From: Verrucomicrobiota bacterium
GTDB taxonomy: Bacteria > Verrucomicrobiota > Verrucomicrobiia > Opitutales > Coraliomargaritaceae
DNA: 34,292 nt
Assembly: GCA_039815375.1 (NCBI GenBank)
Contig: JBCBZJ010000028.1
Coordinates: 1-34,292 of the forward strand
Reading direction: 5' to 3'
A program made the translations under genes and the position numbers. Shown piece after piece: positions 1 to 24,372 of this stretch. Within the stretch, counting starts at the first letter, position 1, and each line of letters begins with the position of its first letter. Below the pieces are notes generated by a model, which was given only the letters and a program-made list of their open reading frames with translations, did not search any database and was not told where the DNA came from.

Positions 1-126
1 GTTAACTAGACGCTTTCTAAACGGAATCGCCTTCCTCGAAGCCTTATCGTTCTCCCCATAGTTGTTCCGTCTGTCTTTTACGTAAGACAGGGCCTTCTTC
101 TCTTGGGGTGTTTTTTGCTTCTTCAT
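1..126 (-). CDS. Partial basic hypothetical protein (N-terminus only, runs off the window edge)
   Basis: ATG at 126 opens MKKQKTPQEKKALSYVKDRRNNYGENDKASRKAIPFRKRLVN with no stop before position 1. Not in the ORF track; translated by hand. Confidence 0.6.
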   Translation of the reverse strand, partial: MKKQKTPQEKKALSYVKDRRNNYGENDKASRKAIPFRKRLVN

Positions 127-1745: not shown

Positions 1746-4700
1746 CTATAAACCCTCAATAAAGCTGTTAAACTGGTCGAAATATTGTTGGCGAACCGAG
1801 TTAGGAACTCTGGCCGCCTCAAACTGTTCCTCAGCTAATCTCCAAGCTGTCCCTGGCTGAACCTGCGCCCAATCAATATTTCTTGGGCTTACGTTTTGCC
1901 GCTGTGCTATTTCCTTCCTGAAAGTATTGAACAGTCCTCTCGTTGCGTTATGGTTTGGATCGTTTCTCATCAAGACAGCGGGAGCTTGGCTAGCCCTGTA
2001 ACCTGTATAATTTGCCTCCATCCAGACGCTATTTACCCCGTGATGCGATTGCATGTTAGCAGGTCTTGGACTGGGCATGCTACCATGTTTTCCGACTCTC
2101 CAAAGACTGCTAGAATCACCAAACCTATCCGCAGTTCTAATCACTCCAAAGACACCAAAACCAGCTGCGGCAAACTTAGCACCCGTAGCCGCTTGACCGA
2201 GACCAGGCACCGCCGCAGCGAGATTGATCGAAGCATCTGCATAATTGCCGCGAGCAACTGAAATCCCCGCATTGGCAATATCCGCCACAAACCCTACAAC
2301 TGGAACCATTCCAAGGAAGCTCAAGCCAGTCTGAACTGCGTTGATGACACTCGCATTGCCAAGACCAGTTGGATCAACAAAGCCTAGTGGATTACCGGCG
2401 GCATAGGCATACCAGTTCCAGCCCTGTTGTGCAGGGTCGGTGTTCACAAAACGCCTAATGAGCGGGTTGTAGAAGCGCGCCCGCATGTGAATCAGACCAC
2501 TCTCGTCCGTTTGATTACCAAAGAAGCCTGTAAAGAGGAACGGCGTATCATGCGTGCCTTCGCGATTGATAATGCTGCCGAATGGCGAGTATTCAACGCG
2601 ATCCGTAACCACCTCGCTATCGTCAGTAAGAGCAATTGTGCTTCCGTAGTTATCGTAATGATAATACGTTGCTTCCTCAACGGCATTTACCTCGTAAAGC
2701 AAGCCAGCACCCCAAACATAACGGACGGTCTGCCCGTTATTGGTGCGCTGCAAGACCTTCGTCAGACCAAGGTTGTTTTCGTTGACGTAGCTAATACTGC
2801 CGCCAGCTCCACTTTGTGAGACACGTTCGCCTTCCGGGTCGTACCCATAGGTGATGCCGCCTGCGGCCGTCAGGCGATTGCGGATATCAAAATCATAGGT
2901 GCCAATGCTACCATTGGGTAGCGGCCCGCTAGTCATGTTTCCATCTGGGTCATGGATAACCGATTGACCCTCAAAACTGGAGAGCTGATTGTCGGCATTA
3001 TAGAGCATCGCGTTGACCACGTTTGGCTGCGCTCCCGCGCTTTGCGCCTTGGGCAGTTGATAGACCCATTGCAACTCATCTGAGGCGTAATAGTTATTCT
3101 TATAGAGCGCAATCAATTGCCCGACAGAAGTATATTCTTCAACGATTTCAGGGCGTCCGGCGGCGTCATACTTGATTTTTCGAATCGTCCCGTTGGGCCT
3201 TACGATTCGATCCAGACGACCGTCGTTGTTCCAGTAGTTCGTCGTGATACGAGGGCTGGTCGTCGAGTCCAGCTTATCAATGACTTCCTTTAGGCGACCT
3301 GTTTTCCAATAGGTGTATTCGACATGACCGACACCATTCTCAGCGCCACCGGGATAAATAATTTTAGCAACCTTCCCTGAATCGTAATAGCGGTAGCCGA
3401 TGGTGTTGCCATTAATATCGGTATAGCTCTTAACCCTATTCAGATTATCGTAAGTGCGGTTGATGCCAGCGGCACCTTCATTCAGGGTTTTAAGATTCCC
3501 GTTGTTATCGTAGAGCGTGTAATTAACGACTTCAGTATCAGTTCCGTTTGAATAAGTCGCGCTTTCTAGGCGACCACTTGTCGGATGATAAGCAAACGTC
3601 GCGGTTTCACCCGAAGGTTCGGTTACAGTGTCGATTTCTCCGCGATGGGCGTATGTCGTGACCGTTGCACGATTATTAGACGCATCCAGTGGTGTGATTG
3701 AATGCGTTCTTCGCCCCAATCCGTCATACCTAAATTCGAAAACATTGTCCTTTTTGTTTCGATAGTAGCGTGGCTGCCCTAGGCGGTTAAACTCTGTGGT
3801 CGCGGTAATGCTATCGGCATCTGTGAAAATACTTCGAGGATAGCCTTCTGTAGTGTCTCCATCTGCCAAGAGTGTTTCGCTGTAGGAAAAACCATAGCTT
3901 CGATCCGAAGGTGCCCCCGGCTCAATTCGCGTTAAGGGGCGATTATCACCATCGTATATGAACGAAGAGGTGCGAGTAGCGGGTTTCTGCACCTCATCGA
4001 CTTCACCATCTCCAAAGTAAATGACGTTTGTTTGGCGATCAGCTGCATCGATGATTTCATCCACCCAATCACGCCCATCGTAAACGTAATCAAGCACAAG
4101 GTCATCCGTGGTCGCTGCAGTTTCGTTAACCAGAGATTCAGAATCCAGAAGGTCGGTCGGATTATAGGTATAGCTTTGTTTGACCCGAAGACCGCCATTA
4201 TCCTGTGGAGATTCCACACTCAACAAGCGTCCTTGATTATCGTAAGCACGGTCTTCAGTCGCTTCATCGGAACCGTTCTTATCGGTTACGACCTGTGTAA
4301 CTTGACGACGGTCATTGTATGTAAAATCCGTGCGAATGTCGTTCGGATCTTCAACCCAGTCCAAGTCACCACGAGCTGTGTATTGGAAGTCTGTTCGAAA
4401 ATCACCAGGCGCATCTGTCCAATCTGGTTGCGCGTTGCCATCATAAGCGTTTTCAGTGACAAGACCATCGTCATCGGTGACAGTATGCACCATCCCGGCG
4501 GCAGCTCCTATTTCGTGATAAGCAAAGGTCGTCGTTCCTTCCGGGTCAATCACTTGATACGGGCGATTTTTTCCAGAATTAAATCCTGATGTGAAGTAAA
4601 CGAAGTCCGTAAAATTACCTTCGGGATCAGTGGTATGGTCTAGTCGGTGCGAACTATCATAGACATTGATCGTGCTGCCGCCGCCACGCGGATAATTGAC

Positions 4701-7700
4701 CTGCAAAAGATTGTGATCGCTGTCATACTCAAAAGTAGTGATTTCACCAGAACCGGAAACGCGCTCAACGACCTGATCTTGGCCGTCGTATTGCATGGTC
4801 ATTTTATTGCCTTCCGCATCGATCTTACCAACCGGACGTCCGCGCTCATCATAAAGGTAAGTGGTAATTCCACCTTCGGGGTCTTCTTCAAAATTTTCGA
4901 GACCACTGTAGCGCAGTTTCCATGTCTTGGACGTATCGCCATGCAGGTATTGTTCTTTGACTCGTCCGAGTGTATCCCAAATATTCTGTGCTACGATTTC
5001 TTTATCGTGATTACGTATCCGCACCATCAGGTGCTCAGATGCTTCCGTACCGGAAGGATCTACAGGTGTTGCCCCGTCGGGATCGGTAGACGCTTCATAA
5101 ACGTAGTAGGTGAATTTACCCTCAGGGTCGGTGTAGCGATCCTGATTTCCTTCTGAATCGTAGCGAAATCCAATGCTCCGCCCGGTTGAATCAGTTAGCG
5201 TGGTAATCTGGTTGTTACTGTTGTATCCGAACGTGTAGCGCCGACCATAGGCATCTTCTACATAATCAATCCGATCATCACTGTGGTAAGCAAATGTCAT
5301 TTCCTTGCCATCCACATCGACAATCTTCTGCACTCTTTGTCCGTCGTCTTCGGAGTCCTGGGTATCTTCAAAATGAATTGTATTTCCAAGCCGCTGCTTG
5401 AGTCGATAGTTCCCACTTACCTCAGTTAACTCCATTGTGGAGCCAGCGGGTGGCTCGAATGTCCCATCGGGCTGTCTGACAAACTGGAAGGTGTCCGGCC
5501 CGATGGTGATAGATACCGCAGAGTTCGTCATTAGGTCCGTGAACCAAGTGACAGCAAGATTTGCCACGCCCCATTCCTTTGCGGAAGCCGTAGTACGATA
5601 CAAATCCGAAGCGACCAGAGCACTTGTAAGAAAACCAGCAGCATGTTCGGTTGTTCCTAACCCCAGAACTTCCTCAACTGCGGTGCGATTTGTCACGCGA
5701 ATGTGAAGGGGGTGCGTCCAACCATATCCTATGTTTTGATCGTCTTGAAAGCGGGTGTTACTGGTATAATGTCGAGTGAAGTTTAGTCCGCGAGGTGCAG
5801 CCTCTATGCCAGTTGCCATATCGTCATTCGCGTAGATAAATGCTCCAGTTGCCATGTCGACCGGATCACTGCCATACATACGCGGTAAGGTTGGTAAAGT
5901 CGGCAAAGGCTTGAGTGTCGGCATCGAAGACGAGCCGTATGTGAAAGCTGGATTTGTATAGATGCTGGAATAAATCGACGTTGAGACTACGGTGGCTGGA
6001 TTAACGGCATAACCACCATTCAAATTACCAGAAATAATCATGCCCACGCCCGTGGCTGTTCGAACAATATAGCCGCTGCCTGTCCAATCTCCGACAGAGT
6101 AGTCATCATTGCGTGGCAGAAAGAGACGCGCACCCGAATTATTAATTAGATTACTAAACTCGGTCTCCTTGGCATTGGTGTAGTTGATCTGATTTCTGAC
6201 GGTATTCCAATTGCTACTGTCAGCTAGATAAAGTCGCTCTCCATCAGCATTTGCACCGCGCAGAATATTTGCTGTCGAAACCCCGGAATTTCCCGGCTGC
6301 ATCTGTTCAATAACGCCATGTTCAAATGCACTGGCATACAATGCCGCAAGTTGAACAACATTATCGAAAGAATCATCCAATTGGCCGTCTCTGGGATAGT
6401 GTCCACTTAAACTCAGACTGACATCGACAAAAAAGCCACCTCCTTGGGATTCATCTTCCTGCGACATTCGACCAAAGGCATGGTGAGTCAAAACATCGAC
6501 CTCATCTATGAAACCGAGCATTTCGTAAGCGAGCTGCTTCTGGTATAGCCAGTTCAAGCCCATGATATTTAGCAACTCGCTCCTGACTTCACGCGAGCTA
6601 TCTAAAAGACCACTCTCAAGATAATCATTAAGAACCTCATAGCGTTTCTGTAAGAGACGCCCTGATGGCGAAAAGCCATAGAGAATCGTATGCACGATAC
6701 CATTTCCACGTTTATAGCTTTGATCGTCTATCTGGTTGCCCAAACCGCCTGGGTGCTCAACTGTGATTGTCAAATCAAATTCTGAACCGCTCACAGTCCG
6801 TGTATCAATTGGGGCGTCATCATCGAACCTTAGGTTCGCAGTCATTCCATTCGAACCAGAAAAATCCAGGCTGATTCTTCGCCCCTCAAGATCGGCAGTA
6901 GGAATGGTGCAATCGATAGCTCCACTTTGGAAACGCACTGTTGTTTTGTAATCGTCCAGTGTTGAAGTGATATTCGTCTCATTGAAGCGGTTCGAGTAAT
7001 ATTGCTTCAATGGGTAGGCGTCCGACAAACTGGGAACTTCAACTGGGATAATTCGCCTGCCGCTGACAATCTCAGCGACACTTAAATTCGGATAGTTGGT
7101 GCGCAACTCGTCTACAATATCACCGGATAAGTTTGCAAGGAATGTGCTAACATTGGCCTCGCTCAAGTTTTGAACATAGCCCGTTCCCGTATTACCTCCG
7201 GCTGTGCTTAAAAGCGTGGATCGATTATAACCAACTGCTGTTAAAAGGTCAGCGCGGTTTAATGTTTCATAGTTCTTAAATGAAGGGTCTAACTCATAGG
7301 CTGTTCCGTTGATAGTAACGCGAAGCCAAACTCGATGCCAAACGATTTGCATTGAACTATTCCAACGCGCCCATCCTTCCATAAAACGCGCATTGCTGAG
7401 AAAGGTGAACGTGTAGCGTATCTGTTTGGCTTGAAGCTCGCTCAGATTCGACCAAAATGATGGCCTTGTAGCACCAAATGCTTGCTGGTAAGTTTGCCCT
7501 GGAAATGGGTCTTTATCCAATCCCAGCATGTCATACACATTCACGCCATTATTGCCGACAACTGCAATTCGGTGACGTCCGCGGCGATATTGGATGTCGC
7601 TGCTAGGAACGCCTGCGGCCTCTAACAATGCTGCTAAAAGCAAGCACTGATCCATATCATTACCACTACCTTCGAGCAGTGTCATCACGGCACCCTTACG

Positions 7701-7991
7701 AATACCGTAATAAGTTTCGTGAACGATCGTGTTTCGGACATAATTAAAAACTTTCAAAGGATCGTTATCCAAAGCTTCTGCTAAAGCAGCGATCTCCGCA
7801 TTAGCAGGCTGTGCCTGAGGAGCGGAGAAAGTAGATGCGCTAGTTGTCGTCGCGGCAGCTTCGTCAATTGATGGTAAAGATGTCGTGCTGCTTCCAATTC
7901 GATTTTCCCACAAAGGGTTCGATTGGCCGTATGCACTTAATAAAAGTGCAAAAAATGTAAGGGCAGTAAAAAGGAACTTAAAGGATTTCAT
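1746..7991 (-). CDS. Rhs/YD-repeat polymorphic toxin: signal peptide, transglutaminase-like domain, DUF6531-like domain, YD shell, Rhs core, pre-toxin helices, C-terminal SHH-type (HNH/EndoVII fold) nuclease
   Basis: ATG at 7991 gives the signal MKSFKFLFTALTFFALLLSAYG. Motifs seen: GNDMDQCLLLAALL...HRVW...LDPS; DPVDMATG...GYGW; many YD repeats; core RARFYNP...YAAGNPLGFVDPTGL (DPTGL at 2361-2375); GMVPVVGFVAD; QSHHG...APAVLM...H. Confidence 0.92.
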   Translation of the reverse strand: MKSFKFLFTALTFFALLLSAYGQSNPLWENRIGSSTTSLPSIDEAAATTTSASTFSAPQAQPANAEIAALAEALDNDPLKVFNYVRNTIVHETYYGIRKGAVMTLLEGSGNDMDQCLLLAALLEAAGVPSSDIQYRRGRHRIAVVGNNGVNVYDMLGLDKDPFPGQTYQQAFGATRPSFWSNLSELQAKQIRYTFTFLSNARFMEGWARWNSSMQIVWHRVWLRVTINGTAYELDPSFKNYETLNRADLLTAVGYNRSTLLSTAGGNTGTGYVQNLSEANVSTFLANLSGDIVDELRTNYPNLSVAEIVSGRRIIPVEVPSLSDAYPLKQYYSNRFNETNITSTLDDYKTTVRFQSGAIDCTIPTADLEGRRISLDFSGSNGMTANLRFDDDAPIDTRTVSGSEFDLTITVEHPGGLGNQIDDQSYKRGNGIVHTILYGFSPSGRLLQKRYEVLNDYLESGLLDSSREVRSELLNIMGLNWLYQKQLAYEMLGFIDEVDVLTHHAFGRMSQEDESQGGGFFVDVSLSLSGHYPRDGQLDDSFDNVVQLAALYASAFEHGVIEQMQPGNSGVSTANILRGANADGERLYLADSSNWNTVRNQINYTNAKETEFSNLINNSGARLFLPRNDDYSVGDWTGSGYIVRTATGVGMIISGNLNGGYAVNPATVVSTSIYSSIYTNPAFTYGSSSMPTLKPLPTLPTLPRMYGSDPVDMATGAFIYANDDMATGIEAAPRGLNFTRHYTSNTRFQDDQNIGYGWTHPLHIRVTNRTAVEEVLGLGTTEHAAGFLTSALVASDLYRTTASAKEWGVANLAVTWFTDLMTNSAVSITIGPDTFQFVRQPDGTFEPPAGSTMELTEVSGNYRLKQRLGNTIHFEDTQDSEDDGQRVQKIVDVDGKEMTFAYHSDDRIDYVEDAYGRRYTFGYNSNNQITTLTDSTGRSIGFRYDSEGNQDRYTDPEGKFTYYVYEASTDPDGATPVDPSGTEASEHLMVRIRNHDKEIVAQNIWDTLGRVKEQYLHGDTSKTWKLRYSGLENFEEDPEGGITTYLYDERGRPVGKIDAEGNKMTMQYDGQDQVVERVSGSGEITTFEYDSDHNLLQVNYPRGGGSTINVYDSSHRLDHTTDPEGNFTDFVYFTSGFNSGKNRPYQVIDPEGTTTFAYHEIGAAAGMVHTVTDDDGLVTENAYDGNAQPDWTDAPGDFRTDFQYTARGDLDWVEDPNDIRTDFTYNDRRQVTQVVTDKNGSDEATEDRAYDNQGRLLSVESPQDNGGLRVKQSYTYNPTDLLDSESLVNETAATTDDLVLDYVYDGRDWVDEIIDAADRQTNVIYFGDGEVDEVQKPATRTSSFIYDGDNRPLTRIEPGAPSDRSYGFSYSETLLADGDTTEGYPRSIFTDADSITATTEFNRLGQPRYYRNKKDNVFEFRYDGLGRRTHSITPLDASNNRATVTTYAHRGEIDTVTEPSGETATFAYHPTSGRLESATYSNGTDTEVVNYTLYDNNGNLKTLNEGAAGINRTYDNLNRVKSYTDINGNTIGYRYYDSGKVAKIIYPGGAENGVGHVEYTYWKTGRLKEVIDKLDSTTSPRITTNYWNNDGRLDRIVRPNGTIRKIKYDAAGRPEIVEEYTSVGQLIALYKNNYYASDELQWVYQLPKAQSAGAQPNVVNAMLYNADNQLSSFEGQSVIHDPDGNMTSGPLPNGSIGTYDFDIRNRLTAAGGITYGYDPEGERVSQSGAGGSISYVNENNLGLTKVLQRTNNGQTVRYVWGAGLLYEVNAVEEATYYHYDNYGSTIALTDDSEVVTDRVEYSPFGSIINREGTHDTPFLFTGFFGNQTDESGLIHMRARFYNPLIRRFVNTDPAQQGWNWYAYAAGNPLGFVDPTGLGNASVINAVQTGLSFLGMVPVVGFVADIANAGISVARGNYADASINLAAAVPGLGQAATGAKFAAAGFGVFGVIRTADRFGDSSSLWRVGKHGSMPSPRPANMQSHHGVNSVWMEANYTGYRASQAPAVLMRNDPNHNATRGLFNTFRKEIAQRQNVSPRNIDWAQVQPGTAWRLAEEQFEAARVPNSVRQQYFDQFNSFIEGL

Positions 7992-8015
7992 AGACGTCAA
8001 AGAAATACTGTAATA

Positions 8016-8717
8016 CTACTGTGCTGATTCTAGATTACCTTCTTCGTCAAAAGTGAAGGCCAGGTTGGTTGAGCCAGAGCTTGTGTTTAGGTGCCCAAGC
8101 GAGGTGTAGGTGTATTCAACCAATCCTGTGCTCTCAGCTATGAAGGTGTTTGCCTGATCGACGATTGGGTTTGTTCTCGCCTGCCACTCGAATTTGTCTA
8201 AAATTCCATCATTATCGAAATCACCTTCACCGTTACGGCTCAGATCCTCAAAATAGAAGATTTCCCAATAATCTGGAAGGCCATCCGGCTCGCTATCAAC
8301 AATGGTTTCGGCGACGACTGCATTCATTGAATTATCTAATTCAAGAGCCGTTGCTATACCGTCTCCATCATGGTCGGTTAAGCCAAGCAAACTGAATGAG
8401 TCCGGGTCCCCTAAGAGCTTAAAAAATGCCTTATCGGTCCCTGCAAAAGGCGCGAACTGCACAGCTTCGGCTTGACCTGTTCCGCCAGCACCGGAGACAC
8501 CCTTGACCGCATAGAAATATTGATCCCAAGCTATTGTTAAGTCTGTCGTGCTTTCGATCACGTAATAGACGTTTGGATTTCCCCAAAATTTAAGCTTCAA
8601 GGGCTGAGTTGGGGCCGCGAGATCTTTTTCAATTCGAAAGTTTTCTGGTAATGCCAAAAGCGACACGCTAAATCCTATAGCTGTCAGTCCGATGATTGTA
8701 GAATGTTTCATGATCAA
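8016..8717 (-). CDS. Secreted protein with DxDxDG (TSP3-like) Ca-binding repeats and a terminal YD-like repeat
   Basis: Signal peptide; YYVIESTTDLTIAW...FFKL segment; DHDGDG, DSEPDGLPDYWE and DFDNDGILD repeats; C-terminal YTYTSLGHL...FTFDEEGNL. Confidence 0.75.
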   Translation of the reverse strand: MIMKHSTIIGLTAIGFSVSLLALPENFRIEKDLAAPTQPLKLKFWGNPNVYYVIESTTDLTIAWDQYFYAVKGVSGAGGTGQAEAVQFAPFAGTDKAFFKLLGDPDSFSLLGLTDHDGDGIATALELDNSMNAVVAETIVDSEPDGLPDYWEIFYFEDLSRNGEGDFDNDGILDKFEWQARTNPIVDQANTFIAESTGLVEYTYTSLGHLNTSSGSTNLAFTFDEEGNLESAQ

Positions 8718-8729: not shown

Positions 8730-9599
8730 TTACTGAGCAGCTTCGCCACGAAGCGGTGTGTAATTCATGATGACCTGTTTTGGCTTTTCGGGCGGATTTT
8801 CCTTTAAGTCCGCTTCGTGCGCTGCCTGCAAAGCCCTAGAATTGAGGTATTCGATACGAAAGCGCTCTTCTTCCTCTAGGTAGAAGCTGAAAAGAGCATT
8901 CAGCTGGCGGTAGAGCTTCTCAGGAATTTCTGTATCTAAGGGAGCGTCTACGAAATATTCGTAGTAATCAGGTGAAAACGAAACCGGAGGATACTCCCAA
9001 AGGCTTTCGATTTGATGGCCTTGTTCTTGGGCAAATTGTATTCTAGCAGCGTCATCTTCACGGGTGTAACTTGTAACGAAACCAAAGTAATCGTATTGGA
9101 CGCCTTCGTAGGAGAAACTTACGATTGGTTTGAGAAAATTCAGTGAAATATTAGTCCAGACAGTCACTCTCTGTCCTTCGACTGGATCGCGCCAAGTGAT
9201 TTTAGAGTATTCGTCGCCGTAGACACTTGCACCCAACGAAATGCTTTCATGCTGATACTCGGTTGGGAGTTCCACTGGCGCGGCAGTTGCCGTAGCTGCT
9301 GTTGTTTCGTGGCTCGAAGCCGGAGCCTCTGGCCTTAGAGCTAAGGCTACCTTTCTAAAGACGATCTTTTGCGTTCCTTTATTAACGACACGTTCTTCAG
9401 TCGCGCTTTGAGCCAGCGCTTGATCGCGGTAAGCTTTATCTGCTGCTTCCTTCTTGGATCTGCGATCTTTTATGATGGCTTCCGCTTCAATATGCGTCAG
9501 GAGCTTTGGTAGGTTCGGCTCAACTGCTTCTTCTGCGAAGATTAAGTTTACCGTCATACCAAATACGACTACTGGAAGAGAGCTTAGTAATATTCTCAT
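8730..9599 (-). CDS. Secreted hypothetical protein, first gene of the Rhs operon
   Basis: 289-aa ORF with a signal peptide, 12 nt upstream of the next co-oriented gene. Confidence 0.75.
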   Translation of the reverse strand: MRILLSSLPVVVFGMTVNLIFAEEAVEPNLPKLLTHIEAEAIIKDRRSKKEAADKAYRDQALAQSATEERVVNKGTQKIVFRKVALALRPEAPASSHETTAATATAAPVELPTEYQHESISLGASVYGDEYSKITWRDPVEGQRVTVWTNISLNFLKPIVSFSYEGVQYDYFGFVTSYTREDDAARIQFAQEQGHQIESLWEYPPVSFSPDYYEYFVDAPLDTEIPEKLYRQLNALFSFYLEEEERFRIEYLNSRALQAAHEADLKENPPEKPKQVIMNYTPLRGEAAQ

Positions 9600-9760
9600 T
9601 TTTTAAGTTTTGTTAGGAAAAATCAGCCGTCGCCCGAGAGAGAATCAAAGATGAATGAAGGGGGCGAGGAAAAGTTCTGCTCAAAAAGCTACATCAGTAT
9701 TCCTAAATGAGCCGATAAGGACTTCTGCATAACTTTACAAATGAGCACCTTACGATAAAA

Positions 9761-9787
9761 TGAAACAGAATAGGTAATTCTGTTTCA
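9761..9787 (+). repeat. Recombination-site candidate A1
   Basis: TGAAACAGAA-TAGGTAA-TTCTGTTTCA: perfect 10-bp arms around an asymmetric 7-bp core. The final A is the A of the recombinase ATG. Confidence 0.85.
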
Positions 9788-10374
9788 TGGAGGAAAGCGT
9801 GTGGAAGCCACTCAATTTACATGGCCGTAACGGACAGCGAAAATACTTAAACCTAATCGAGAGAGACGCATTCTTGCGGGCCTCGGAAATTCTACCCCAC
9901 AAGAAACGGTTGTTCTGCTACGTGCTCGCCTGCACCGGATGTCGTATCTCCGAAGCTCTCGCGCTGAGCCCGAGCAACCTAGATGTGGCGGAAAGCGTTA
10001 TCATCATTGAATCCCTTAAACAGCGACGCAGAGGGGTTTACCGAGTTGTTCCCGCTCCCAAAGAGCTGATCGATCTACTTCTTGAGATCAGTGATGATCG
10101 CCCCTTCTTCGACTTCTCGAGAACCACAGCATGGAGGTTTGTCAAAAGAGTCATGAAGGAGGCCGGCATTGAAGGTGAATCGAATTCTATGCCAAAGGCT
10201 TTCAGGCATTGTTTCGGCGTTGCACATGCCCAGGCAAAGACTCCTCCGCATCTCATGCAGCGATGGTTTGGTCATGCAAAAATTGAAACGACCAACATTT
10301 ACTTAGATGCCGTCGGAGACGAAGAACGTGCCTTTGCCAGAACGATTTGGCCGTCATTTTCGGACATTGAGTAA
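9787..10374 (+). CDS. Short tyrosine recombinase A (catalytic domain only, FimB/FimE-like size)
   Basis: TGCRISE, SLK, KAFRH, FGH and TTNIY motifs in 195 aa; no N-terminal core-binding or arm-binding domain. Confidence 0.92.
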   Translation: MEESVWKPLNLHGRNGQRKYLNLIERDAFLRASEILPHKKRLFCYVLACTGCRISEALALSPSNLDVAESVIIIESLKQRRRGVYRVVPAPKELIDLLLEISDDRPFFDFSRTTAWRFVKRVMKEAGIEGESNSMPKAFRHCFGVAHAQAKTPPHLMQRWFGHAKIETTNIYLDAVGDEERAFARTIWPSFSDIE

Positions 10375-10395
10375 AAAGATTTTTAGTCAAATTTC

Positions 10396-10422
10396 TGAAA
10401 CAGAATTACCTATTCTGTTTCA
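10396..10422 (-). repeat. Recombination-site candidate A2 (exact inverted copy of A1)
   Basis: TGAAACAGAA-TTACCTA-TTCTGTTTCA is the 27/27 reverse complement of 9761-9787. Confidence 0.85.
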
Positions 10423-10549
10423 CTCTCCATACGAACGTATTTTAACTAATAATTTCAATATCTTGGGGCGATGATTGAGTTCAACCAAGAGCCTATGATC
10501 GAGTTATTAAAACTAAGTTTCGAAACATCTAAACTAGTTTGCAAATACC

Positions 10550-10576
10550 TGTCCGATTTTAGGTAATAACCGGACA
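10550..10576 (+). repeat. Recombination-site candidate B1
   Basis: TGTCCGATTT-TAGGTAA-TAACCGGACA: same core as the A sites, with different imperfect arms. Confidence 0.8.
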
Positions 10577-10621
10577 CTATAAAGATGATTGATACTCAGA
10601 AATGTGCAATCTGAATCGTCC

Positions 10622-11209
10622 TTACCACGCTATTTTGGCCGCTTCGCGAGCCTCTTTTCCTTGGGCATCCAAGTAGATTAAAGTCGTTTCTAGTGAGGCG
10701 TGTCCCATCCAATCCTGTATCAGCCTCGGGTTTGTTTTGTGCTGCGCATGAAATACCCCAAAGGCGTGGCGAAGGCCACGCGGTGTTGCATGAGGACCGT
10801 CAATTCCGGTGATTTCCATTACTCTTTTGACTGCACGATAGCCTGTCTTTTCGGAAAAGCCCCAGATGGATTTTTTGCCGTGCCCACTGTGATGCTTGCT
10901 CAGTAAATTAACAGCCTTCTTCATCCAATTCAGTCGGACAGGGATTTCTCGATATAGGCCGCGCCGTCTTTTCTTGAGGGATTCGATGACCAGAACGCCC
11001 TCTGCTAGGTCAAAGCTTTCCAGTCTGAGGCGATGGGCTTCAGTTGGCCTGCATCCAGTGCAAAAAATTGTGTAGCAGTAGAGCTCCTTAATTGGATCTC
11101 TAAGCCCCGAAATACAGTCGCGGAAACGGGCTCTCTCCTCCGGTGTGAGATATTTTCTGAGCCCGTTTCTGTCGCGTAGTTGAAGTGACTGCAAGTGTGC
11201 CTCCGGCAT
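10622..11209 (-). CDS. Short tyrosine recombinase B (paralog of A)
   Basis: TGCRPTE, SLK, RGLRH, MGH and TTLIY motifs in 195 aa. Shares L.L..RNG.RKYL...ER and ESLK.RRRG.YR with recombinase A. Confidence 0.92.
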   Translation of the reverse strand: MPEAHLQSLQLRDRNGLRKYLTPEERARFRDCISGLRDPIKELYCYTIFCTGCRPTEAHRLRLESFDLAEGVLVIESLKKRRRGLYREIPVRLNWMKKAVNLLSKHHSGHGKKSIWGFSEKTGYRAVKRVMEITGIDGPHATPRGLRHAFGVFHAQHKTNPRLIQDWMGHASLETTLIYLDAQGKEAREAAKIAW

Positions 11210-11235
11210 GTCCGATTATTACCTATACTCGGTCA
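11209..11235 (-). repeat. Recombination-site candidate B2 (inverted relative to B1)
   Basis: The minus strand reads TGACCGAGTA-TAGGTAA-TAATCGGACA, 23/27 identical to B1. The final A is the A of the recombinase B ATG. Confidence 0.8.
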
Positions 11236-11285
11236 AATCACTTAAAACACTACACTGGAGATACTTACAAATCAACTAAAGCAAG

Positions 11286-11915
11286 ATGACTAAAAGATAC
11301 GAAAAAATCGGACAGGCGAATATCTATCGTGAAAAAAAGAAAAACGGCTGCGGTCCAATTATCGGCGTAATCCTACTATTCTTTGTAGCAATGGCACTGC
11401 TCAGTGAATGCTCCGGTGCTGAACTCACAGGCAAACCGCTCGACTTGATTCTCAATGATCCTATCCCGGCCAATGCCAACAAAGGCGTGTCCAATCCATC
11501 GCGATTATCCAAAGTCAGCGGTGAACCGCGCTTGCTGATGTATGAGAAGCGCAGCGGCAATATCTCCCCTTTTCAGTTCGCAGTCGAAACCTCAAAGCAA
11601 GCCGATCGGTTGGTGATATTGGCAGCTAGCACTGAAAAGTATAAAACCCAAGCAGTTGACCATGCTCAAAAGTTAGCGAAATGGCTGGAACTCGAACTAA
11701 ATACTGTTGAGCGTGTTCAAATTATTGTCTATCAAAATGACAAAGGAGTTGGGTATTACTACTATGTTAGTGGATTAACTCATTGGGATAATGAAGGGCC
11801 TGTCTTAGCTATGAAACCAGATCAGGCTACGGCAGAGTTAGAGAAAGTCGTCTGGACTCACAAGGCTAGGCTTGCCTTGATTGAGCGTGGTGAGCACCTA
11901 GACATCCTGAATTAA
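11286..11915 (+). CDS. Membrane-anchored hypothetical protein
   Basis: 209-aa ORF with a basic N-terminus followed by one hydrophobic helix (IIGVILLFFVAMALL). Confidence 0.65.
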   Translation: MTKRYEKIGQANIYREKKKNGCGPIIGVILLFFVAMALLSECSGAELTGKPLDLILNDPIPANANKGVSNPSRLSKVSGEPRLLMYEKRSGNISPFQFAVETSKQADRLVILAASTEKYKTQAVDHAQKLAKWLELELNTVERVQIIVYQNDKGVGYYYYVSGLTHWDNEGPVLAMKPDQATAELEKVVWTHKARLALIERGEHLDILN

Positions 11916-15122: not shown

Positions 15123-16304
15123 TTGAGATTAACTGACACGAAATGCCGTAGTTTTAAAGCCAAAGACAAACCATACAAAGAAAGCGACGGAGCTGGTCTT
15201 TATCTGCTAATTAAGCCGAACAGTCGAAAATACTGGCGTATGAATTACCGCTACAGCGATAAAGCCAAAACACTGGCAATCGGGGTTTACCCCGACATCA
15301 GCCTTAAGGAAGCCAGAAACAGACGCAACGAAGCTCGGAAGTTACTCGACGAAGGTAAAGACCCAAGCTTCGAAAAACAGCGTGACAAGCTTCGTCAGCA
15401 GATCGCCGTTGATAATCAATTTTTCATCATTGCCGCCGAATGGCTGAGCAAGAAGCAGAAGACGATTTCAAAAATTTATCACGGACAACTGACGACTATC
15501 TTGGAAAAAGACATCAACCCTGTCATTGGGAAGATGCCAATCAATGAGATCACAGCTCCCGAACTACTTCTTGCATTAAGAAAGATCGAAGAGCGGGGCG
15601 CATTTGATACTGTCCGCAAAGCGCGTCAGTGTTGCGGACAAATTTTTCGCTATGCAATCGCGATCGGCAAAGCAGAGCGGGACATAGCACAGGATCTCAA
15701 AGGAGCACTAGAACCTTATGAATCCAAAAATCATGCTTACCTTGAAGAATCGGAGCTACCTGAATTCTTCGAACGATTATCTTGCTTTGACGGCAATCCG
15801 ATAACCATTGCAGCAATTGAACTGCTTATGCTGACATTTGTGAGAACACAGGAAATACGCTTCGCGGTTTGGACGGAATTCGACCTGAAGAAAAAACACT
15901 GGCGCATTCCACCGGAGCGCATGAAAAACAAAAAGCAGCATATTGTGCCGCTTTCTTCGCAAGCGGTTGATGTCCTCAAACGCATCAAAGCACTAACAGG
16001 AGAACGGAAATTCCTCTTCCAGAATTCAAATGTTCCGGTTCAGCCTATCAGTGAAAATACCATGCTCTATGCCATTTATCGCATGGGCTATCATGGCCGT
16101 GCAACCATTCACGGATTTAGATCTACTGCCTCAACGATCCTTCATGAGAATAGGTTCAATAGCGACGTGATTGAACGACAACTTGCCCACGTCGAAAGAA
16201 ACAAGATTAAGGCTGCTTACAATCACGCGCAGCATCTCGAGGAACGCACTGAAATGATGCAGTGGTGGGCTGACCATTTGGATACATTTAGACCTAAGAA
16301 GTAA
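15123..16304 (+). CDS. P4-family tyrosine integrase with arm-binding domain
   Basis: LTD...K.YK.SDG.GLYL arm domain, plus R.QE, HGFR, QLAH, AAYNH and MMQWW motifs. Confidence 0.97.
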   Translation: MRLTDTKCRSFKAKDKPYKESDGAGLYLLIKPNSRKYWRMNYRYSDKAKTLAIGVYPDISLKEARNRRNEARKLLDEGKDPSFEKQRDKLRQQIAVDNQFFIIAAEWLSKKQKTISKIYHGQLTTILEKDINPVIGKMPINEITAPELLLALRKIEERGAFDTVRKARQCCGQIFRYAIAIGKAERDIAQDLKGALEPYESKNHAYLEESELPEFFERLSCFDGNPITIAAIELLMLTFVRTQEIRFAVWTEFDLKKKHWRIPPERMKNKKQHIVPLSSQAVDVLKRIKALTGERKFLFQNSNVPVQPISENTMLYAIYRMGYHGRATIHGFRSTASTILHENRFNSDVIERQLAHVERNKIKAAYNHAQHLEERTEMMQWWADHLDTFRPKK

Positions 16305-16332
16305 CTCCACTACTTGTCCTAACTTTATCATG

Positions 16333-16360
16333 GCCGGATCAAACTTTGATCCGGCTTTTT
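16333..16360 (+). terminator. Intrinsic terminator after the integrase
   Basis: GCCGGATCAAA-C-TTTGATCCGGC-TTTTT. Confidence 0.8.
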
Positions 16361-16392
16361 ATTACACCCGACTGCGTAAGTTTCGCCGGATA

Positions 16393-16438
16393 GCGAGATG
16401 GCCTTTTGTCGAACAAAAACTCGCTTCGCTCATCTCGC
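16393..16438. other. Candidate MOBP oriT
   Basis: Nested inverted repeats GCGAGATG/CATCTCGC and TTTTGT-CGA-ACAAAA immediately upstream of mobC. Confidence 0.5.
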
Positions 16439-16533
16439 AAAGGGAATTGTGCATTCCCGTTTGATCCCAGCATGAACCGCCGAGGCCCGGTTCAATCGGC
16501 CTTACATCGCACCAACAGAAAAGGAACTTTCCA

Positions 16534-16881
16534 ATGTCGCGTCCACGCAAGACGGAGGCAGCTCGTATGTCACGCCGCATTACCTTCCGCGTCACTCAGG
16601 CGGAGTATGACCGCCTGACCATCAAGGCAAAAAGCCTTAGCCTGAGTGCTGCGCAATTTGCCCGCAAACTTGCACTCGATCCGCGCAATAAGATCGTATT
16701 GAACACATACAAGCGTTTCGATCCGGCATACATCGCACAGCTCAAGAGGATCGGCAATAATCTCAATCAGCTCGTCAAAAACGCACATGTCTTCAAGCGA
16801 GTATCACCACGAGTGGATCTTTTGCTGGAAGACATTCGAGCCATCATCTTCATGGCGATTGATGAGGAGTTTGACGATTGA
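16534..16881 (+). CDS. mobC: Relaxosome accessory protein MobC
   Basis: RHH-like ITFRVT..EY and the signature QLKRIGNNLNQL; overlaps the relaxase start. Confidence 0.92.
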   Translation: MSRPRKTEAARMSRRITFRVTQAEYDRLTIKAKSLSLSAAQFARKLALDPRNKIVLNTYKRFDPAYIAQLKRIGNNLNQLVKNAHVFKRVSPRVDLLLEDIRAIIFMAIDEEFDD

Positions 16882-18224
16882 TTCCGCATGAAGCAAAGCG
16901 CGGCACAAGCTTTCTAGGCTGGTTCCTGTATCACTTACATGACAAGCAAGCTTCGACACGAAAACGTGTGGGCTGGACACAAACGCTCAATATGCTGACA
17001 GACAATCCTGCAAAAGCATGGAAAGTGATGGCCTACACTGCAAAGTTAGCAGAGCGACTAAAAGAGGCCTCAGGCGTAGCCAAGACCGGAAGAAAGCTTC
17101 GCCTGCCGGTGTTCTCCTATAGCTTGTCCTGGCACCCAAGCGAACACCCCAGCAAAGAAGATATGCTACGTGCCGTCCATCGCTCGATTAAGGCCATCGG
17201 GATGGAAGACTACGAAGGATTAGTCGTAGCGCACACCGACACCCTTCACTCTCATGTGCATATCGCTCTAAACCGAGTTCATCCAATCACTGGACTTACC
17301 GCAGACAACGGTCAGACCAAACGCAAGCTTTCAGCCTTTGCTCTCAAATGGGAGCAAGACAACGGAATCATCCACTGCCCTCAACGAAAGGAAAACCATG
17401 ATATGCGAAAAGAAGGCAAAACGACCAAATACAATGATCCCATTATTGCTAAAGCATGGGAGCGATCAAACAATGGTCGGGAATTTATCTCTGAGCTGGA
17501 AAGGCATGAATACTATCTGGCGCGTGGACGAAAACGGCTGGTCGTAGTCGATACATACGGGAAAATCCATTCACCCACCCGCCACTTGAATCAAGTGAAC
17601 ATCAAGACTTTTGAGCAGAAGCTCGAAGATTTGGATTTCACGAGACTGCGCGACGCAGAAGACTTATCAAAAGCGATTGTGGAATTCAAGAAGCTGGACT
17701 ACAACAAGCGCCAGAAAGCCTTTGCATCAGACGATGCATCGGAAGAAATAGTGGAGACCAATCAGCAACCGCCTCAGAGTGAATCATCAAGACTAGAACA
17801 AGAACTCGAAACACTTTCGAAAGATGAAACCCATCAAGCATTACGGCTGAAGCAGGCGTTCGAGGCAGTCATTCTCCAGAGGCGCAAGACACTGGAGAAA
17901 GATCGCGGGTTGTCCATATTCCAAACAGAAATCAACAAGCTGAAAACCAAGAATAAACTCTCTGGCTTCTTGCAAAAGGCTTTCGGACTGCATTCTTACC
18001 GACACCTGAAACTTAAATCGCTACGACGCAAATTCAGCACTGCCTGCATCGCTATTGAAAAAGACATCCTGCCTTATCGCTACAAGATGAAGGAGGCACT
18101 TCAGCAAAACAAAGATCTCTACGAATACAGGCGCGCTGAATTACTCGCCAAGTTCAGCAAATGCGCAGCGAGAATCAACTCGGTTGACCCGAATCTAGGC
18201 CACAAATCGCTGAAATTGGAATGA
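16878..18224 (+). CDS. MOBP (VirD2-like) relaxase
   Basis: G.SF....Y, YSLSWHPSE and HUH motif AHTDTLHSHVHIALNRVHP. Confidence 0.92.
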   Translation: MIPHEAKRGTSFLGWFLYHLHDKQASTRKRVGWTQTLNMLTDNPAKAWKVMAYTAKLAERLKEASGVAKTGRKLRLPVFSYSLSWHPSEHPSKEDMLRAVHRSIKAIGMEDYEGLVVAHTDTLHSHVHIALNRVHPITGLTADNGQTKRKLSAFALKWEQDNGIIHCPQRKENHDMRKEGKTTKYNDPIIAKAWERSNNGREFISELERHEYYLARGRKRLVVVDTYGKIHSPTRHLNQVNIKTFEQKLEDLDFTRLRDAEDLSKAIVEFKKLDYNKRQKAFASDDASEEIVETNQQPPQSESSRLEQELETLSKDETHQALRLKQAFEAVILQRRKTLEKDRGLSIFQTEINKLKTKNKLSGFLQKAFGLHSYRHLKLKSLRRKFSTACIAIEKDILPYRYKMKEALQQNKDLYEYRRAELLAKFSKCAARINSVDPNLGHKSLKLE

Positions 18225-18420
18225 CCACCTCCAGAAGAAAAGCTTTGTCTCAGCTTCAGAAGTCTAGATTTGAATAAACAGCAGCGCTAATCTGATGGTG
18301 CATTTTCCTGCATTGAAGAGTACCTGAGCCAGCATAAGACCGTGAAAATGCAAGCACCAGAATAACTGAACAAGCTCTTACGAGGAGAAGCGGGTAAAAA
18401 TAAGCAAACCTTTCGAATCT

Positions 18421-19497
18421 CTATGACCTCATAGCTCGAAAGTGGCACTGAGACTTCTCTTCATCGATTTCTCCATTCTCAGAATCTCGGAAAATTAAAT
18501 CGTCAAACAATAAAAAGAAGTATTCCAAGCCATCCCGCGCATTCTTCTTATTGATGAGCATTTGTTCGCAGAATTTATAAAACGCATTCTGCATATTTCT
18601 GGCATTAACATCACAACCAAAGAAGAGTTCTCGATATGAATAGCCACTAAGCGTTTGATCTTTTACCTCAGCAGGCAGAGTTCGCTCCATGTAATTCAAA
18701 CCCTTGCAAATCGTGTCTATCGAAATACAGAGCGAATCCGACATAAAACTATAGTTATCCGGCAACCTAACTGCATCTAGCGGCTGCTCGTTGCTATGGT
18801 GCTCTGCCAAAAAGACAGCATTTTCCAACTCGTGCGCTATGTGTGCAAAAACACGATTCCAAGTCGTAACGATAGTCTTGAATGCTTTATCACGCGTCTT
18901 AAAGAGGTCATCATATGCCTCATCAACCAAAATATCATCGAGTTTTGGATTCGGAAAAACACTACGATCAATATGTATAAAGTGAATGTAAGATTTATCT
19001 CTTACTTCAGCAAAGCTTTCTTCTGCTTCATTGTCGGCGTGCGATTCAAATTTCCCTAATTTGCCGTAACAAAAGTCGTGGATCCACTTTTTTAAGCGCG
19101 TCTCAGTGTCACTCAACCCATCAGGGCTACCTTCTTCGTCGTTCAGGTAATCAAGAAAATCGACAAGCCGATAATTGTTGATGTAAGCCTCTTGGAATTC
19201 GTCCTATAGCAATCTATCTTCAACAAGAAGAGTGATTAGATGATAACGACCCTTACCATCCATTCTCAGCCTATGCTCTATAGTTGGTCGGCCATCATGC
19301 TTTTTCGACTTACCGTCCCCGCACTCATCACAGGTCAAAATATTCTCAGTTGGGTCAGCCAGAAGCAATGAATCAACAACTGACTGTTTTGGAAAGCTAC
19401 ACTTGGAACGTTCAAAAGCATACCGAGTGTATGAATAAGAAAGAGCGTATTTGAGACTACGGTATGCGTGGATGATTGGTAATTGATAAGGCTTCAC
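18421..19497 (-). pseudogene. Hypothetical gene of about 358 codons interrupted by one in-frame TAG at 19204-19206
   Basis: ORFs 19204..19497 and 18421..19116 share a frame, and the bridge DEFQEAYINNYRLVDFLDYLNDEEGSPDGL is open. Confidence 0.7.
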
Positions 19498-19592
19498 AAC
19501 AAGACAAAATAAAACGGTCGCGTTACAATAATACCGATTTTAGGCAGAGAGAACTAAACTCAATGCACTTTAACGAGAACCACCAGCAGCAA

Positions 19593-19784
19593 TCACTGCC
19601 CCGGCACTGGGCATGTTAGAGCAACTGCACTCTTGGTTTCTTTCAACGCACGCCTCATACTGCGAATGCGTGTCTCCGGCGAGGCCTTCTCACCAGTACA
19701 GCCAATGGAAGCACCCAAGTTCACCAACTTTGTCAGGTTGGCTGTAGTTGCATCTTGTGGCTTCATCTCGTTTTCTTTATTCAT
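19593..19784 (-). CDS. Small hypothetical protein
   Basis: 63-aa ORF co-oriented with its neighbours; no motif recognised. Confidence 0.35.
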   Translation of the reverse strand: MNKENEMKPQDATTANLTKLVNLGASIGCTGEKASPETRIRSMRRALKETKSAVALTCPVPGQ

Positions 19785-20154
19785 ATCGTATGCCCTTGTG
19801 TATCAAAGTTTTGTTGTTTTTAAGCTTAATGCAAGTCAAAGGAGCAGTCAACCAAAGGAGCCCGCACTTTTGACAAAAATTTTGAAATAGCAAATTCGCA
19901 TTTAAATTAGATACAAGCTCAAAATAACGCTCAAATAGCACAGAAAGAATATTTCAAATTCAGTATCTAATTTCGTAATTAAAATACTAATATTCAACAA
20001 CTTAATAAATCCACCCATCCAGAAAAAAACCAATCGTTATTCCATCGCCAACAGCGTATTACCTAGGCCCGCCTACTATCTTTATGCAGGAGACAGCCGA
20101 CCGAGCCCCCTGCAATTTGAGTTGGTCAATCACACCTCACAAAGCACTCGCCTG

Positions 20155-20481
20155 CTAGTCAGTCTCATTAATCGACCATTTGAGCTCAGTAACCCTCACC
20201 TCGCATTTTTCACTATCTGTGCTACACCGAACGCTGCGAACTTCCTGCATTTGAAAATACCCCCATAGCTCATCAAGGTTATGGCCGTAGATATTGACCA
20301 CAAAATCTTCACCAAAATACAGATCAATTTGATGACGATCAGAGCACTGAAAATAATCACCATATGTGAAGCTATGGTAAGGAAAAGCTCGCTGATTTGG
20401 GCCACCATCCGCAGTAAATGTAGGACAACCGGGTGCAAGTTGATAGGCATCGTTGTTTTCCAATTTAGGTTCTTCGGTCAT
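20155..20481 (-). CDS. Hypothetical protein coupled to the MOBF relaxase
   Basis: 108 aa; ATGA overlap with the relaxase stop. Confidence 0.7.
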   Translation of the reverse strand: MTEEPKLENNDAYQLAPGCPTFTADGGPNQRAFPYHSFTYGDYFQCSDRHQIDLYFGEDFVVNIYGHNLDELWGYFQMQEVRSVRCSTDSEKCEVRVTELKWSINETD

Positions 20482-21821
20482 CGTTGTTTTCTTTTGCGTG
20501 CTTGACGGGTTAATTCGCGGACAATGAAGCCAGCAGGATGACCATTCAGGGCATTCAAAATAGCATGACCGCGCTTGATCTTGCGTAGAGCTTCAATGCG
20601 CCTTGTCTGCTCTCTTTTCACACGAGCATGCTGCGATTTACTCTTGATCAGGTTACGCTTTCCTAGAGGTGTTTGCCTGACTGGCTCTGCGACTTGGGGC
20701 TTATTCTTTTTACGAGCATTATCTGTATCCTGAGACATCAAAGAAGCGCCTTGATCTTGAAGCGGCTCTATAGCTGGTGCGTTCATCGCCTGTTGACTCA
20801 AAATCGCGTGCTGCACGGTCTTCTTCAGTCCATGTTGCTGCTCTGGCCGCAGACGTTCTAACTGGCTCGACAGAACTTCTGCTTGCGAGCTGTTCGCCAT
20901 CTTCGACGAACGCCAATCGTTAACGAAGGATTGGACGATCTGGTTCTCAGGCTTCTGGCCGAAGGCCTGCTCATACTCGCCAATGAAACGCTTCGTGGCC
21001 GGCCCTTTGGTTTCCTTAATAAAATACTCTACGCGCCTCTCATCAGGCTTTTGACCGAACATTTCCTGATAGCGATCTATGAAATCAACCTTCTGTTTCG
21101 AGCGCGCTGAAAAAAGCAATTCCATCTCGGCGGTAATCCCGCGCAGACGCGGCACGTCCTGCTTCTGATCAGGATCATATTTCCAGTGCACATCATAGCC
21201 GAGCTTACGGCACTCCTTTGCCATGTCCTGATAGAACGCCCGTCGGATCGACAGTTTGCTTTGCTCCATCATTTCGCGTGGCTGGAGCGCATACCACTGC
21301 TGCGCTTGCTCGCACCACGTATGATTTGAAAACACGCAGTGCGCATGAAGCTGAGGATCAAGCAGGCGACTGGTATCGTGATGATAAACGGCTGCAACGC
21401 CGTTGCTCGTTTGGACTGTATTTTCAGTATTGTGGGATTTGCCCTGACGCTCACGTCTAGACGCATAAGATTCCAGATGCTTGAAGGTGCGATCAACGAC
21501 TTCCTCAAAAGCCTTCACCAGACGCTCATCTCCACCCACCAGTGCCGCAATACTAATGGTCTTTGGACAAGAGATCACAATATCATGAAACATGCCCTCA
21601 GTAGTTCGGAGCCTGAGCTTTTCATCGGTGAGCGGGTGCTTATTTGTGCGCAAAGCTTCAAAAGCCTCGGCAGTCACTGCCTGTCCCTCGATGCCGAGGA
21701 GTTCCGCAGCCTTCCCCCGCCAGTAACCTATCACCGTTTCATTCTCACAGTAATAATCGTTCGCACTGAGGTGCCGCTTCATGTAGCCCTCGCCCCCTTT
21801 GATCTGACTTGCCGTAATCAT
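20478..21821 (-). CDS. MOBF (TrwC-domain) relaxase lacking the helicase domain
   Basis: N-terminal Y...DYY, W.G, D..IS.PK.IS and HDTSRLLDPQLHAH motifs, FS.R; 447 aa with no Walker A. Confidence 0.92.
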   Translation of the reverse strand: MITASQIKGGEGYMKRHLSANDYYCENETVIGYWRGKAAELLGIEGQAVTAEAFEALRTNKHPLTDEKLRLRTTEGMFHDIVISCPKTISIAALVGGDERLVKAFEEVVDRTFKHLESYASRRERQGKSHNTENTVQTSNGVAAVYHHDTSRLLDPQLHAHCVFSNHTWCEQAQQWYALQPREMMEQSKLSIRRAFYQDMAKECRKLGYDVHWKYDPDQKQDVPRLRGITAEMELLFSARSKQKVDFIDRYQEMFGQKPDERRVEYFIKETKGPATKRFIGEYEQAFGQKPENQIVQSFVNDWRSSKMANSSQAEVLSSQLERLRPEQQHGLKKTVQHAILSQQAMNAPAIEPLQDQGASLMSQDTDNARKKNKPQVAEPVRQTPLGKRNLIKSKSQHARVKREQTRRIEALRKIKRGHAILNALNGHPAGFIVRELTRQARKRKQR

Positions 21822-21871
21822 TCATAGGAGGAATGCGCCAGTGCGCGGCAATTTATCCGATTTTTTAAAGC

Positions 21872-22249
21872 TTAACCCAACAGTTTCAGCTTAAAATGCT
21901 TTACGAAATGACGGTAATCGCTGTCTCTGGCGATCAAGGGAATACCGTGGTCGATGCAATAAACAGCGATCATTGTATCAAGCGTCCGTGCCTTATAACT
22001 CTTCTGCAAAAGTTTTAGACGAGCTTTCCCAACACGCTCCCAGAAACCGGCTTCAATGGGCAGCTGGGGCAATTCCAGAATGGCCTGTTTCGCCCCATCG
22101 GTAATACCGCGAGCACTGAACAACTCAGCAATGACGAAAGGTGGGATAATGAGTAATTCATCATCAACCGCCTGAGCAACCAATTCCACATCCTTAGCCT
22201 CATCGCCTTGCAGGAATGCTACGAGGCTACTGGTATCAACTCCAATCAC
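21872..22249 (-). CDS. vapC: PIN-domain toxin VapC
   Basis: GTG start at 22249 overlapping the antitoxin stop; VDTS, E, D..IA and D.DY acidic tetrad. Confidence 0.9.
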   Translation of the reverse strand: MIGVDTSSLVAFLQGDEAKDVELVAQAVDDELLIIPPFVIAELFSARGITDGAKQAILELPQLPIEAGFWERVGKARLKLLQKSYKARTLDTMIAVYCIDHGIPLIARDSDYRHFVKHFKLKLLG

Positions 22250-22470
22250 GATAAATCCCGATCCGCGCGAGAAGCGCTGATATCGATATCCAGTGTTTTG
22301 CAACTGCCTCGCAATTGCCGTATTTTACCGTAAGCACCAGAGGAAGTCAGCTTAGCAAGCCCAGCAGTTACAGTTTTTGTAATACCATCTCCCGTGAATT
22401 CCTGCGCCTCTTCCAACAGGAAGGCGGGCACATGGACTGTAATTTTACGCAAAGTTTCAGTTTCGGCCAT
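22246..22470 (-). CDS. vapB: VapB-type antitoxin (RHH)
   Basis: 74 aa with RKITVHVP..LLEEA; GGAG RBS; coupled to the PIN gene. Confidence 0.85.
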   Translation of the reverse strand: MAETETLRKITVHVPAFLLEEAQEFTGDGITKTVTAGLAKLTSSGAYGKIRQLRGSCKTLDIDISASRADRDLS

Positions 22471-23065: not shown

Positions 23066-23097
23066 GATCAATCATTCAAAACAAAGGAGATTTATGA

Positions 23098-24362: not shown

Positions 24363-24372
24363 GCCAAGCGCC

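Follow-up and report, generated by a model that had tools for sequence, protein, structure and literature searches.

Two self-enclosed recombinase cassettes in a Verrucomicrobiota genome: probable Hin-like promoter switches of a minimal tyrosine invertase family

Two small recombinase genes, each enclosed by its own pair of inverted lox-like sites, lie tail to tail in the window (the whole stretch of 34,292 nucleotides analysed here), which raises the question of what such cassettes do and whether the two act together. The reading we prefer, at a probability of roughly 0.7, is that A and B are two orthogonal, self-carrying, Hin-like promoter switches, run by a new family of minimal tyrosine invertases, assembled OFF/OFF and biased to OFF. 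The names recA and recB (proteins RecA and RecB) serve here as labels for the recombinases of cassettes A and B, whose parts are as follows.

9761..9787, plus strand: site A1, with arm TGAAACAGAA, core TAGGTAA and a perfect inverted arm; the arm is the family consensus arm
9787..10374, plus strand: recA, a tyrosine recombinase consisting of the catalytic domain only; 195 aa if read from the first ATG
10396..10422, minus strand: site A2, A1 inverted, identical
10423..10549, no strand: spacer of 127 bp, into which both predicted tail promoters would read
10550..10576, plus strand: site B1, arms of the B type (TGTCCG..), core TAGGTAA
10622..11209, minus strand: recB, likewise a tyrosine recombinase with no domain but the catalytic one; 195 aa if read from the first ATG
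11209..11235, minus strand: site B2, inverted partner of B1 (23/27)

The anatomy given in a preliminary description of this DNA stands: each gene lies within its own inverted site pair (A1> recA(+) <A2, spacer, B1> recB(-) <B2), all four sites are built as a 10-bp arm, 7-bp core and 10-bp arm, over all 27 bp A2 repeats A1 exactly in inverted orientation, the 10-bp arms being perfect, B1 and B2 match at 23/27 positions, and A2 and B1 are 127 bp apart. TAGGTAA is the core of all four sites, in the orientations +, -, +, - (A1, A2, B1, B2); both arms of each site are of one type, and the A and B arms have 3-6 of 10 bases in common. A chance check over 3,559,545 genome positions returned 1963 sites with arms matching at no fewer than 8/10 bases, and A and B are the only core-matched inverted pairs of at least 23/27 within 5 kb in the 3.56-Mb genome, where no further close copy of recA or recB was found. 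The A2-B1 spacer was considered as an invertible segment in its own right and is not favoured, since the cores match and the arms differ (13/27). Folds predicted at the junctions are mainly hairpins of the sites themselves.

RecA and RecB are 45% identical and belong to the tyrosine recombinase superfamily by their match to PF00589, conserved residues and fold. As had been proposed from the letters alone, an N-terminal binding domain is absent - both proteins match PF00589 only, above the cut-off - and the R/K/R/H/Y catalytic motifs are intact (R53, K78, R140, H163 and Y172 in A; R54, K79, R147, H170 and Y179 in B), with the His of H-x-x-R replaced by K137 in A and R144 in B. The predicted structure of RecA (pLDDT 86.7) matches the catalytic domains of XerA (E 6.6e-9, TM 0.70) and XerH; comparison with PHROGs added the term 'integrase' and nothing else. 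In both genes the true start is probably 4-5 codons downstream of the first ATG, because a GGAGG lies just within A1 (9789-9793, before GTG 9799) and just within B2 (11204-11200, before TTG 11194), and because the resulting lengths recur, 191 aa from the GTG of recA as in protein P0001 and 190 aa from the TTG of recB as in 4/7 recB relatives. These later starts would place the ribosome-binding sites inside the invertible DNA.

Does any described system have this form? Hin, a serine invertase, acts at hix sites with a Fis enhancer, and an outward promoter on the Salmonella H segment serves the flanking genes. The recombinase gene of the Hin system lies within the invertible segment (PMC5903667, in the part available), as those of A and B lie within their inverted sites. 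Unlike Hin, A and B are enzymes of about 190 aa with palindromic lox-like sites, a locus-specific core of 6-8 bp and hardly anything inside besides the gene, and as tyrosine, not serine, recombinases they stand outside the Hin family. Fim-type invertases are about 200 aa long and depend on IHF/Lrp; against two 'tyrosine-type DNA invertase' models (NF007370 and NF007371, which we take to be the FimB/FimE models) A and B score 30-37 bits with cut-offs of 221-222, so they are not members. According to PMC6083910, FimB, FimE, FimX, IpuA and IpuB are tyrosine invertases, and surface genes come under their control through the turning of a promoter (fimS, hyxS, ipuS), their own genes lying beside the switch, with one ipuS repeat cutting into the 3' end of ipuA and repeats of 7, 9 and 16 bp. 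The contrast already drawn with FimB/FimE is borne out by the same paper: Fim-type genes lie outside the inverted element, whereas those of A and B lie between their own sites. Tyrosine invertase genes do lie within the hsdS epigenetic invertons (PsrA/CreX and others; PMC7672463, in excerpt). What those elements rearrange is the coding segments of hsdS genes within type I R-M loci, whereas the output of A and B would be promoter direction, and no hsdS or type I R-M family was found among 36 window proteins scanned.

Cre/loxP and Xer/dif have arm-core-arm sites in which an asymmetric core sets direction, and the A/B family resembles them in its arm-core-arm sites and catalytic fold. In a synthetic single-invertase memory module (Cre/Flp), reportedly made by Friedland et al. 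in 2009, a recombinase between its own inverted sites is said to flip itself, lose its upstream promoter and re-aim an internal one; unlike that module A and B are natural, and they would not necessarily act one way. Simple YRs have core-binding plus catalytic domains and complex ones add an arm-binding domain (PMC8138268, as far as its available text goes). A and B fit neither class of that scheme, being of 190-195 aa with a catalytic domain only, in a family whose paired sites are never direct. Our search of accessible main texts found no description of the RecA/RecB family, in agreement with the earlier failure to recognise a described system, even if a recombinase gene within its own invertible segment was already known from Hin and the hsdS invertons; supplementary inverton catalogues (e.g. 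of PMC11892184) could list members. No paper on such switches in sphingomonads, other Alphaproteobacteria, Verrucomicrobiota or Acidobacteria came up in that search, and the accessible sections of PMC7096588 and PMC2481393 hold nothing decisive for this family.

RecA relatives form 1319 clusters at E<=1e-20 among 1666 candidates, and 215 loci were gathered for site analysis. The consensus of the site matrix is TGAAACAGAAT-N5-ATTCTGTTTCA; a site scoring at least 13 lies within 250 bp upstream of 118/172 genes, compared with a shuffled maximum of 5.3 for a matrix trained on these same regions, and the B sites score negatively on it. A matched pair accompanies 83/175 genes and is inverted in all 83. 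Two sites 127-213 bp apart upstream of the gene make up the commonest paired layout (55/175; a larger upstream pair occurs in 2/175), self-enclosed genes number 20/175 and self-enclosed genes with cargo 6/175 (one weak), while 62/175 have a single site and 30/175 none - these last two counts being too high, since the scan assumed a 7-bp core and missed cores of 6 and 8 bp. Cores vary across loci (53 cores in 81 loci) and match within a locus: 38/44 distinct core pairs match in inverted orientation and 0 in direct (null mean 0.86, max 5). Compact cassettes have cores of 6, 7 or 8 bp and several arm types. Agreement between arms and protein clades is loose in a quick tree of 98 proteins, where L001 and L222 are the company of A and B (SH-aLRT 91; the branch of B is long and its placement unsure).

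Matches occur in 13/401 genomes of the window's order and in 18/401 for the family of G638, with the compact self-enclosed layout dominant in both; for the order of G639 5/251 genomes match, the only compact pair being the already known L001, and family searches around G262, G144, G172 and G153 gave no new loci. The upstream layout, which works like the Fim switches, has a 100-190-bp segment between gene and divergent cargo (L006, L083, L091, L135, L141, L164-L168 and others); viral contigs carry it too, next to genes for an acyltransferase or a methyltransferase. The inner segments of L135 and L141 run in opposite directions (1/28 matches). Larger self-enclosed cassettes (L042, L061, L067, L116, L240, L371, L376) hold 3-6 kb, including defence-like genes (SIR2-STAND-TPR, DndB with methylase, TPR). 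Cargo across the family is often surface or secreted: PEP-CTERM, EAL plus SCPU, beta-barrel and Rhs. The PEP-CTERM cargo seen in genomes of the window's order would fit Verrucomicrobiota.

Direct signs of switching come from the Sphingobium-type relatives, a subtype that differs from the compact one in having about 100 bp of leader within the segment. Within the genus of G471 (L024, titled Sphingobium) 27/163 genomes match; 36 loci were scanned, and 16 with a cassette and EAL-type cargo were tabulated (of which one comes from a Sphingomonas record and another was assigned through orthology). The recombinase points at the EAL cargo (ON) in 8/16 and away from it (OFF) in 8/16. Fifteen pairwise alignments include 5 ortholog pairs with collinear flanks and a reversed cassette (L320/L121, L320/L325, L324/L329, L285/L308, L323/L148), the rest being same-state, identical or uninformative. 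In L320/L121 the left flank aligns at 86% on the plus strand, the cassette at 91% on the minus strand and the right flank at 87% on the plus strand; in L320/L325 flank (98.8%) and cassette (99.8%) align on opposite strands, and the breakpoints of the reversed cassettes fall at the sites. In genome G492 both junctions of the cassette's 5' end, to the one flank and to the other, are present at two contig ends (L325, L326). Contigs L300 and L303, of 844 bp, run from core to core and hold the cassette alone; both findings would be expected of mixed cultures. Self-inversion is therefore real in Sphingobium-type relatives. Of the 16 loci, 8/8 ON and 0/8 OFF ones have a TTG 8 bp ahead of the site on the cargo side; a -10-like hexamer lies at the core end and the cargo starts about 40 bp further, a placement by which the flip would assemble a promoter. 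Three loci (L286:9693-10262, L317:6987-7547, L318:7426-7995) have a second family recombinase just outside the self-enclosed switch, with own sites undetected there, possibly a FimB/FimE-like helper or a reset enzyme.

What would a flip do in the window? The genes and predicted promoters around A and B are these.

8730..9599, minus strand: o289, first gene of A's divergent cargo operon; no family found
8016..8717, minus strand: o233, second cargo gene of A; weak TSP3-repeat match
1746..8000, minus strand: Rhs protein of 2084 aa, third cargo gene of A; DUF6531 and a C-terminal Tox-SHH nuclease domain
1453-1743, after the Rhs gene: 96-aa ORF, possible immunity gene
11286..11915, plus strand: o209, B's divergent cargo, 209 aa, start 50 bp past B2; no family found
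10367..10394, plus strand: predicted outward tail promoter of A, TTGAGT-16-AAATTT, a weak match at the family's position
10582..10609, minus strand: predicted outward tail promoter of B, TTGCAC-16-CATCTT, its -35 standing where the family most often has it, 33 bp ahead of the site
9734..9761, plus strand: predicted recA promoter outside the cassette, TTTACA-16-TAAAAT, the last base of the -10 being the first of A1
11247..11275, minus strand: possible recB promoter outside the cassette, TTGATT-17-TAGTGT, weak

Thus o289, o233 and Rhs lie left of A and o209 right of B, all pointing away from the cassettes. The flip would owe its function to the promoter-like element that points outward and to the divergent cargo, and this output is what the preliminary description, sound in its anatomy, had missed. 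The promoter calls are consensus matches, and a scan of the window gave 3 where 2.6 were expected. The tail pattern TTG-19..21-NA...Y is present in 27/42 compact-type loci (null mean 2.7, max 8 of 500; close kin included) and at the other three junctions in 6, 5 and 2 of 42; a first compact set had TTG at -36..-30 in 17/36 against a null of 4.0. Both window cassettes carry the pattern, A weakly. In 32/42 loci an ORF pointing outward begins no more than 100 bp from site 1, and cargo often starts 25-55 bp past that site; on the other hand, 21/42 loci also have such an ORF within 100 bp on the right. Outer recombinase promoters, at 6/42 against a null of 4.4, show no family-wide enrichment; in A and five orthologs the last base of a -10 box coming from outside is the first of site 1, and the outer recA promoter stands in the same register in L001, L081, L082, L222 and L224.

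On the preferred reading each small recombinase would invert a 0.65-kb segment holding its own gene, and the flip would aim the predicted 3'-end promoter at the divergent cargo, from A into the o289-o233-Rhs operon and from B into o209. As assembled both cassettes would be OFF, their putative tail promoters facing each other over the spacer. In the compact subtype the ribosome-binding site would be inside the segment and the recA promoter seemingly outside, overlapping the site; because the outer -10 overlaps site 1, self-repression by the enzyme is probable, and inversion would cut recA off from its promoter. The difference between the arms makes A and B probably orthogonal despite their one core. 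For A the effect may be modest: o289 adjoins an A-type cassette also in L001, L081, L082 and L224, and a family site lies upstream of 4/29 matches to o289, window included, but most homologs are cassette-free, and a divergent gene is frequent upstream of them, as is a conserved -35-like element of their own, TCGAC/TTGAC, at 40-65 bp from the start (upstream regions L254-L282), so that cassette A may only boost its cargo. The arrangement of B with o209 recurs in L249, no promoter-like match lies between B2 and o209, and atlas searches with o209 and o289 named no family. Inside the o209 start, 11304-11316 is a 13-bp inverted copy of the left end of B1, which could be a B half-site, an operator or chance.

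The switch appears strongly OFF-biased, with ON cells rare or short-lived. Among the compact relatives compared, no flipped A, B or other cassette was found; a 74-aa cargo is divergent (OFF) in 15/15 loci, and flank matches are left-left in 182 cases, right-right in 25 and mixed in 5. One mixed match, L377/L375, proved on examination to be no flip, and L242, which has DUF6362 on the opposite side from window B, was left uncounted as the genes between differ. L082 ends two bases into its expected second site, which is a hint only. In the parts that four contig sets cover, flipped joints at A or B were absent at 85% or 80% likeness, contigs being prone to drop rare forms. That each recombinase flips its own gene, as first proposed, is supported by the family, with covarying, never direct cores and relatives found both ways round with breakpoints at the sites, whereas A and B have been seen in one orientation only.

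Are the twins coupled? The tail-to-tail pair was found only in the window; two family genes occur in 3 other loci of the 215 (two tandem, one convergent and cut). Nor are A and B an XerC/XerD-like obligate heteromer, since no site combines one arm of each type and A-like and B-like cassettes occur apart from each other elsewhere. One alternative, which would add to the preferred reading rather than replace it (the probabilities of the readings do not sum to one), is that the twin was selected as a coupled latch. In OFF/OFF each tail promoter would make antisense RNA to the other recombinase; after one flip the partner's tail promoter would drive the flipped recombinase and reset its cassette, so that only a double flip would be stable, giving two stable states and not four. 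The geometry of the two tail elements fits, no terminator-like site was found in the 127-bp spacer, the chance of identical cores is about 0.027 family-wide, and A and B fall together in the quick tree, B's long branch notwithstanding. However, the layout is unrepeated: other multi-cassette loci (L222, L367, L370) have two cassettes each, divergent or tandem, 5-12 kb apart and with different cores, a B-like cassette (X4, 90-95%) has other neighbours, and A orthologs lack B. TAGGTAA-like cores also recur nearby (L228, L233, L283, L017), and the common core may reflect common descent. We regard the latch as unlikely and the coupling of A and B as unproven. The same low probability attaches to the wider proposal that a widespread 190-aa invertase family builds natural self-flipping memory modules with swappable cores, two of which cross-wire in the window into a latch, so that both cassettes must flip before the Rhs operon and a second gene are turned on.

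The preliminary description itself favoured a two-bit switch, both cassettes flipping reversibly and independently so that four states coexist. Both pairs are core-matched, the enzymes are intact and the Sphingobium-type relatives flip reversibly; yet compact cassettes are known in one state only, one unbroken contig spans the locus in the state of the window (X1, which may be the window's source), and a piece from another study (X3) bridges A2 in that state too. Together with the separate occurrence of A-like and B-like cassettes and the unrepeated twin, this leaves the four-state switch quite improbable.

Least probable of all is mobility or decay, in which sites exchange cassettes between loci, or the enzymes resolve a mobile element, and local inversion no longer matters: L389:1448 and L390:1071 share cargo and leader (87%) to the site edge and then have unrelated cassettes with different sites, as if exchanged at the site, single-site members exist, a plasmid-borne member (L387:1294-1929) lies beside rep/par genes, o289 homologs have a lone site without a recombinase upstream (L283:7470-7496) or a cassette truncated at its 5' end nearby (L284:3547-3806), and the window is itself a mobile region, but a direct pair was never found in the family, the A sites are perfect at 27/27, the tail promoter pattern is conserved and no hybrid A/B site exists in the window. 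The GC content of the window is 46.7% (genome 50.8%), and 15123-32231 is a composite mobile region with a P4-like integrase, MobC and a MOBP-like relaxase, a MOBF relaxase, and PIN toxin, antirestriction, methylase, ParB, ParA and VirD4-like genes; the window holds no tRNA.

The family, its site code and the self-inversion in relatives matter more than the twin itself. They define a large invertase family across sphingomonads, other Alphaproteobacteria, Verrucomicrobiota and Acidobacteria, for which a target site and three layouts are now described and switching is directly indicated, and they predict that genes for surface structures and competition (EAL plus pilus-like SCPU, PEP-CTERM, Rhs) undergo hidden phase variation. 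Should the enzymes work without help from the host, they would offer Cre-like tools of very small size, whose sites are symmetric and 26-28 bp long, with dozens of natural cores and some arm types that are orthogonal; they would also reveal what lets a recombinase locate its site when it lacks a core-binding domain. Cross-talk between self-inverting modules could readily be tested on the twin. Some members may do otherwise: plasmid-borne ones next to rep/par genes and Acetobacteraceae ones with one site about 0.9 kb upstream (L387:1294-1929; L004, L009, L117) possibly form a resolvase branch. The exact A-site pattern had 0 matches in viral contigs, and a 5606-bp record from another run (X2) matches window positions 9761-9797, an A-like site in an unrelated context.
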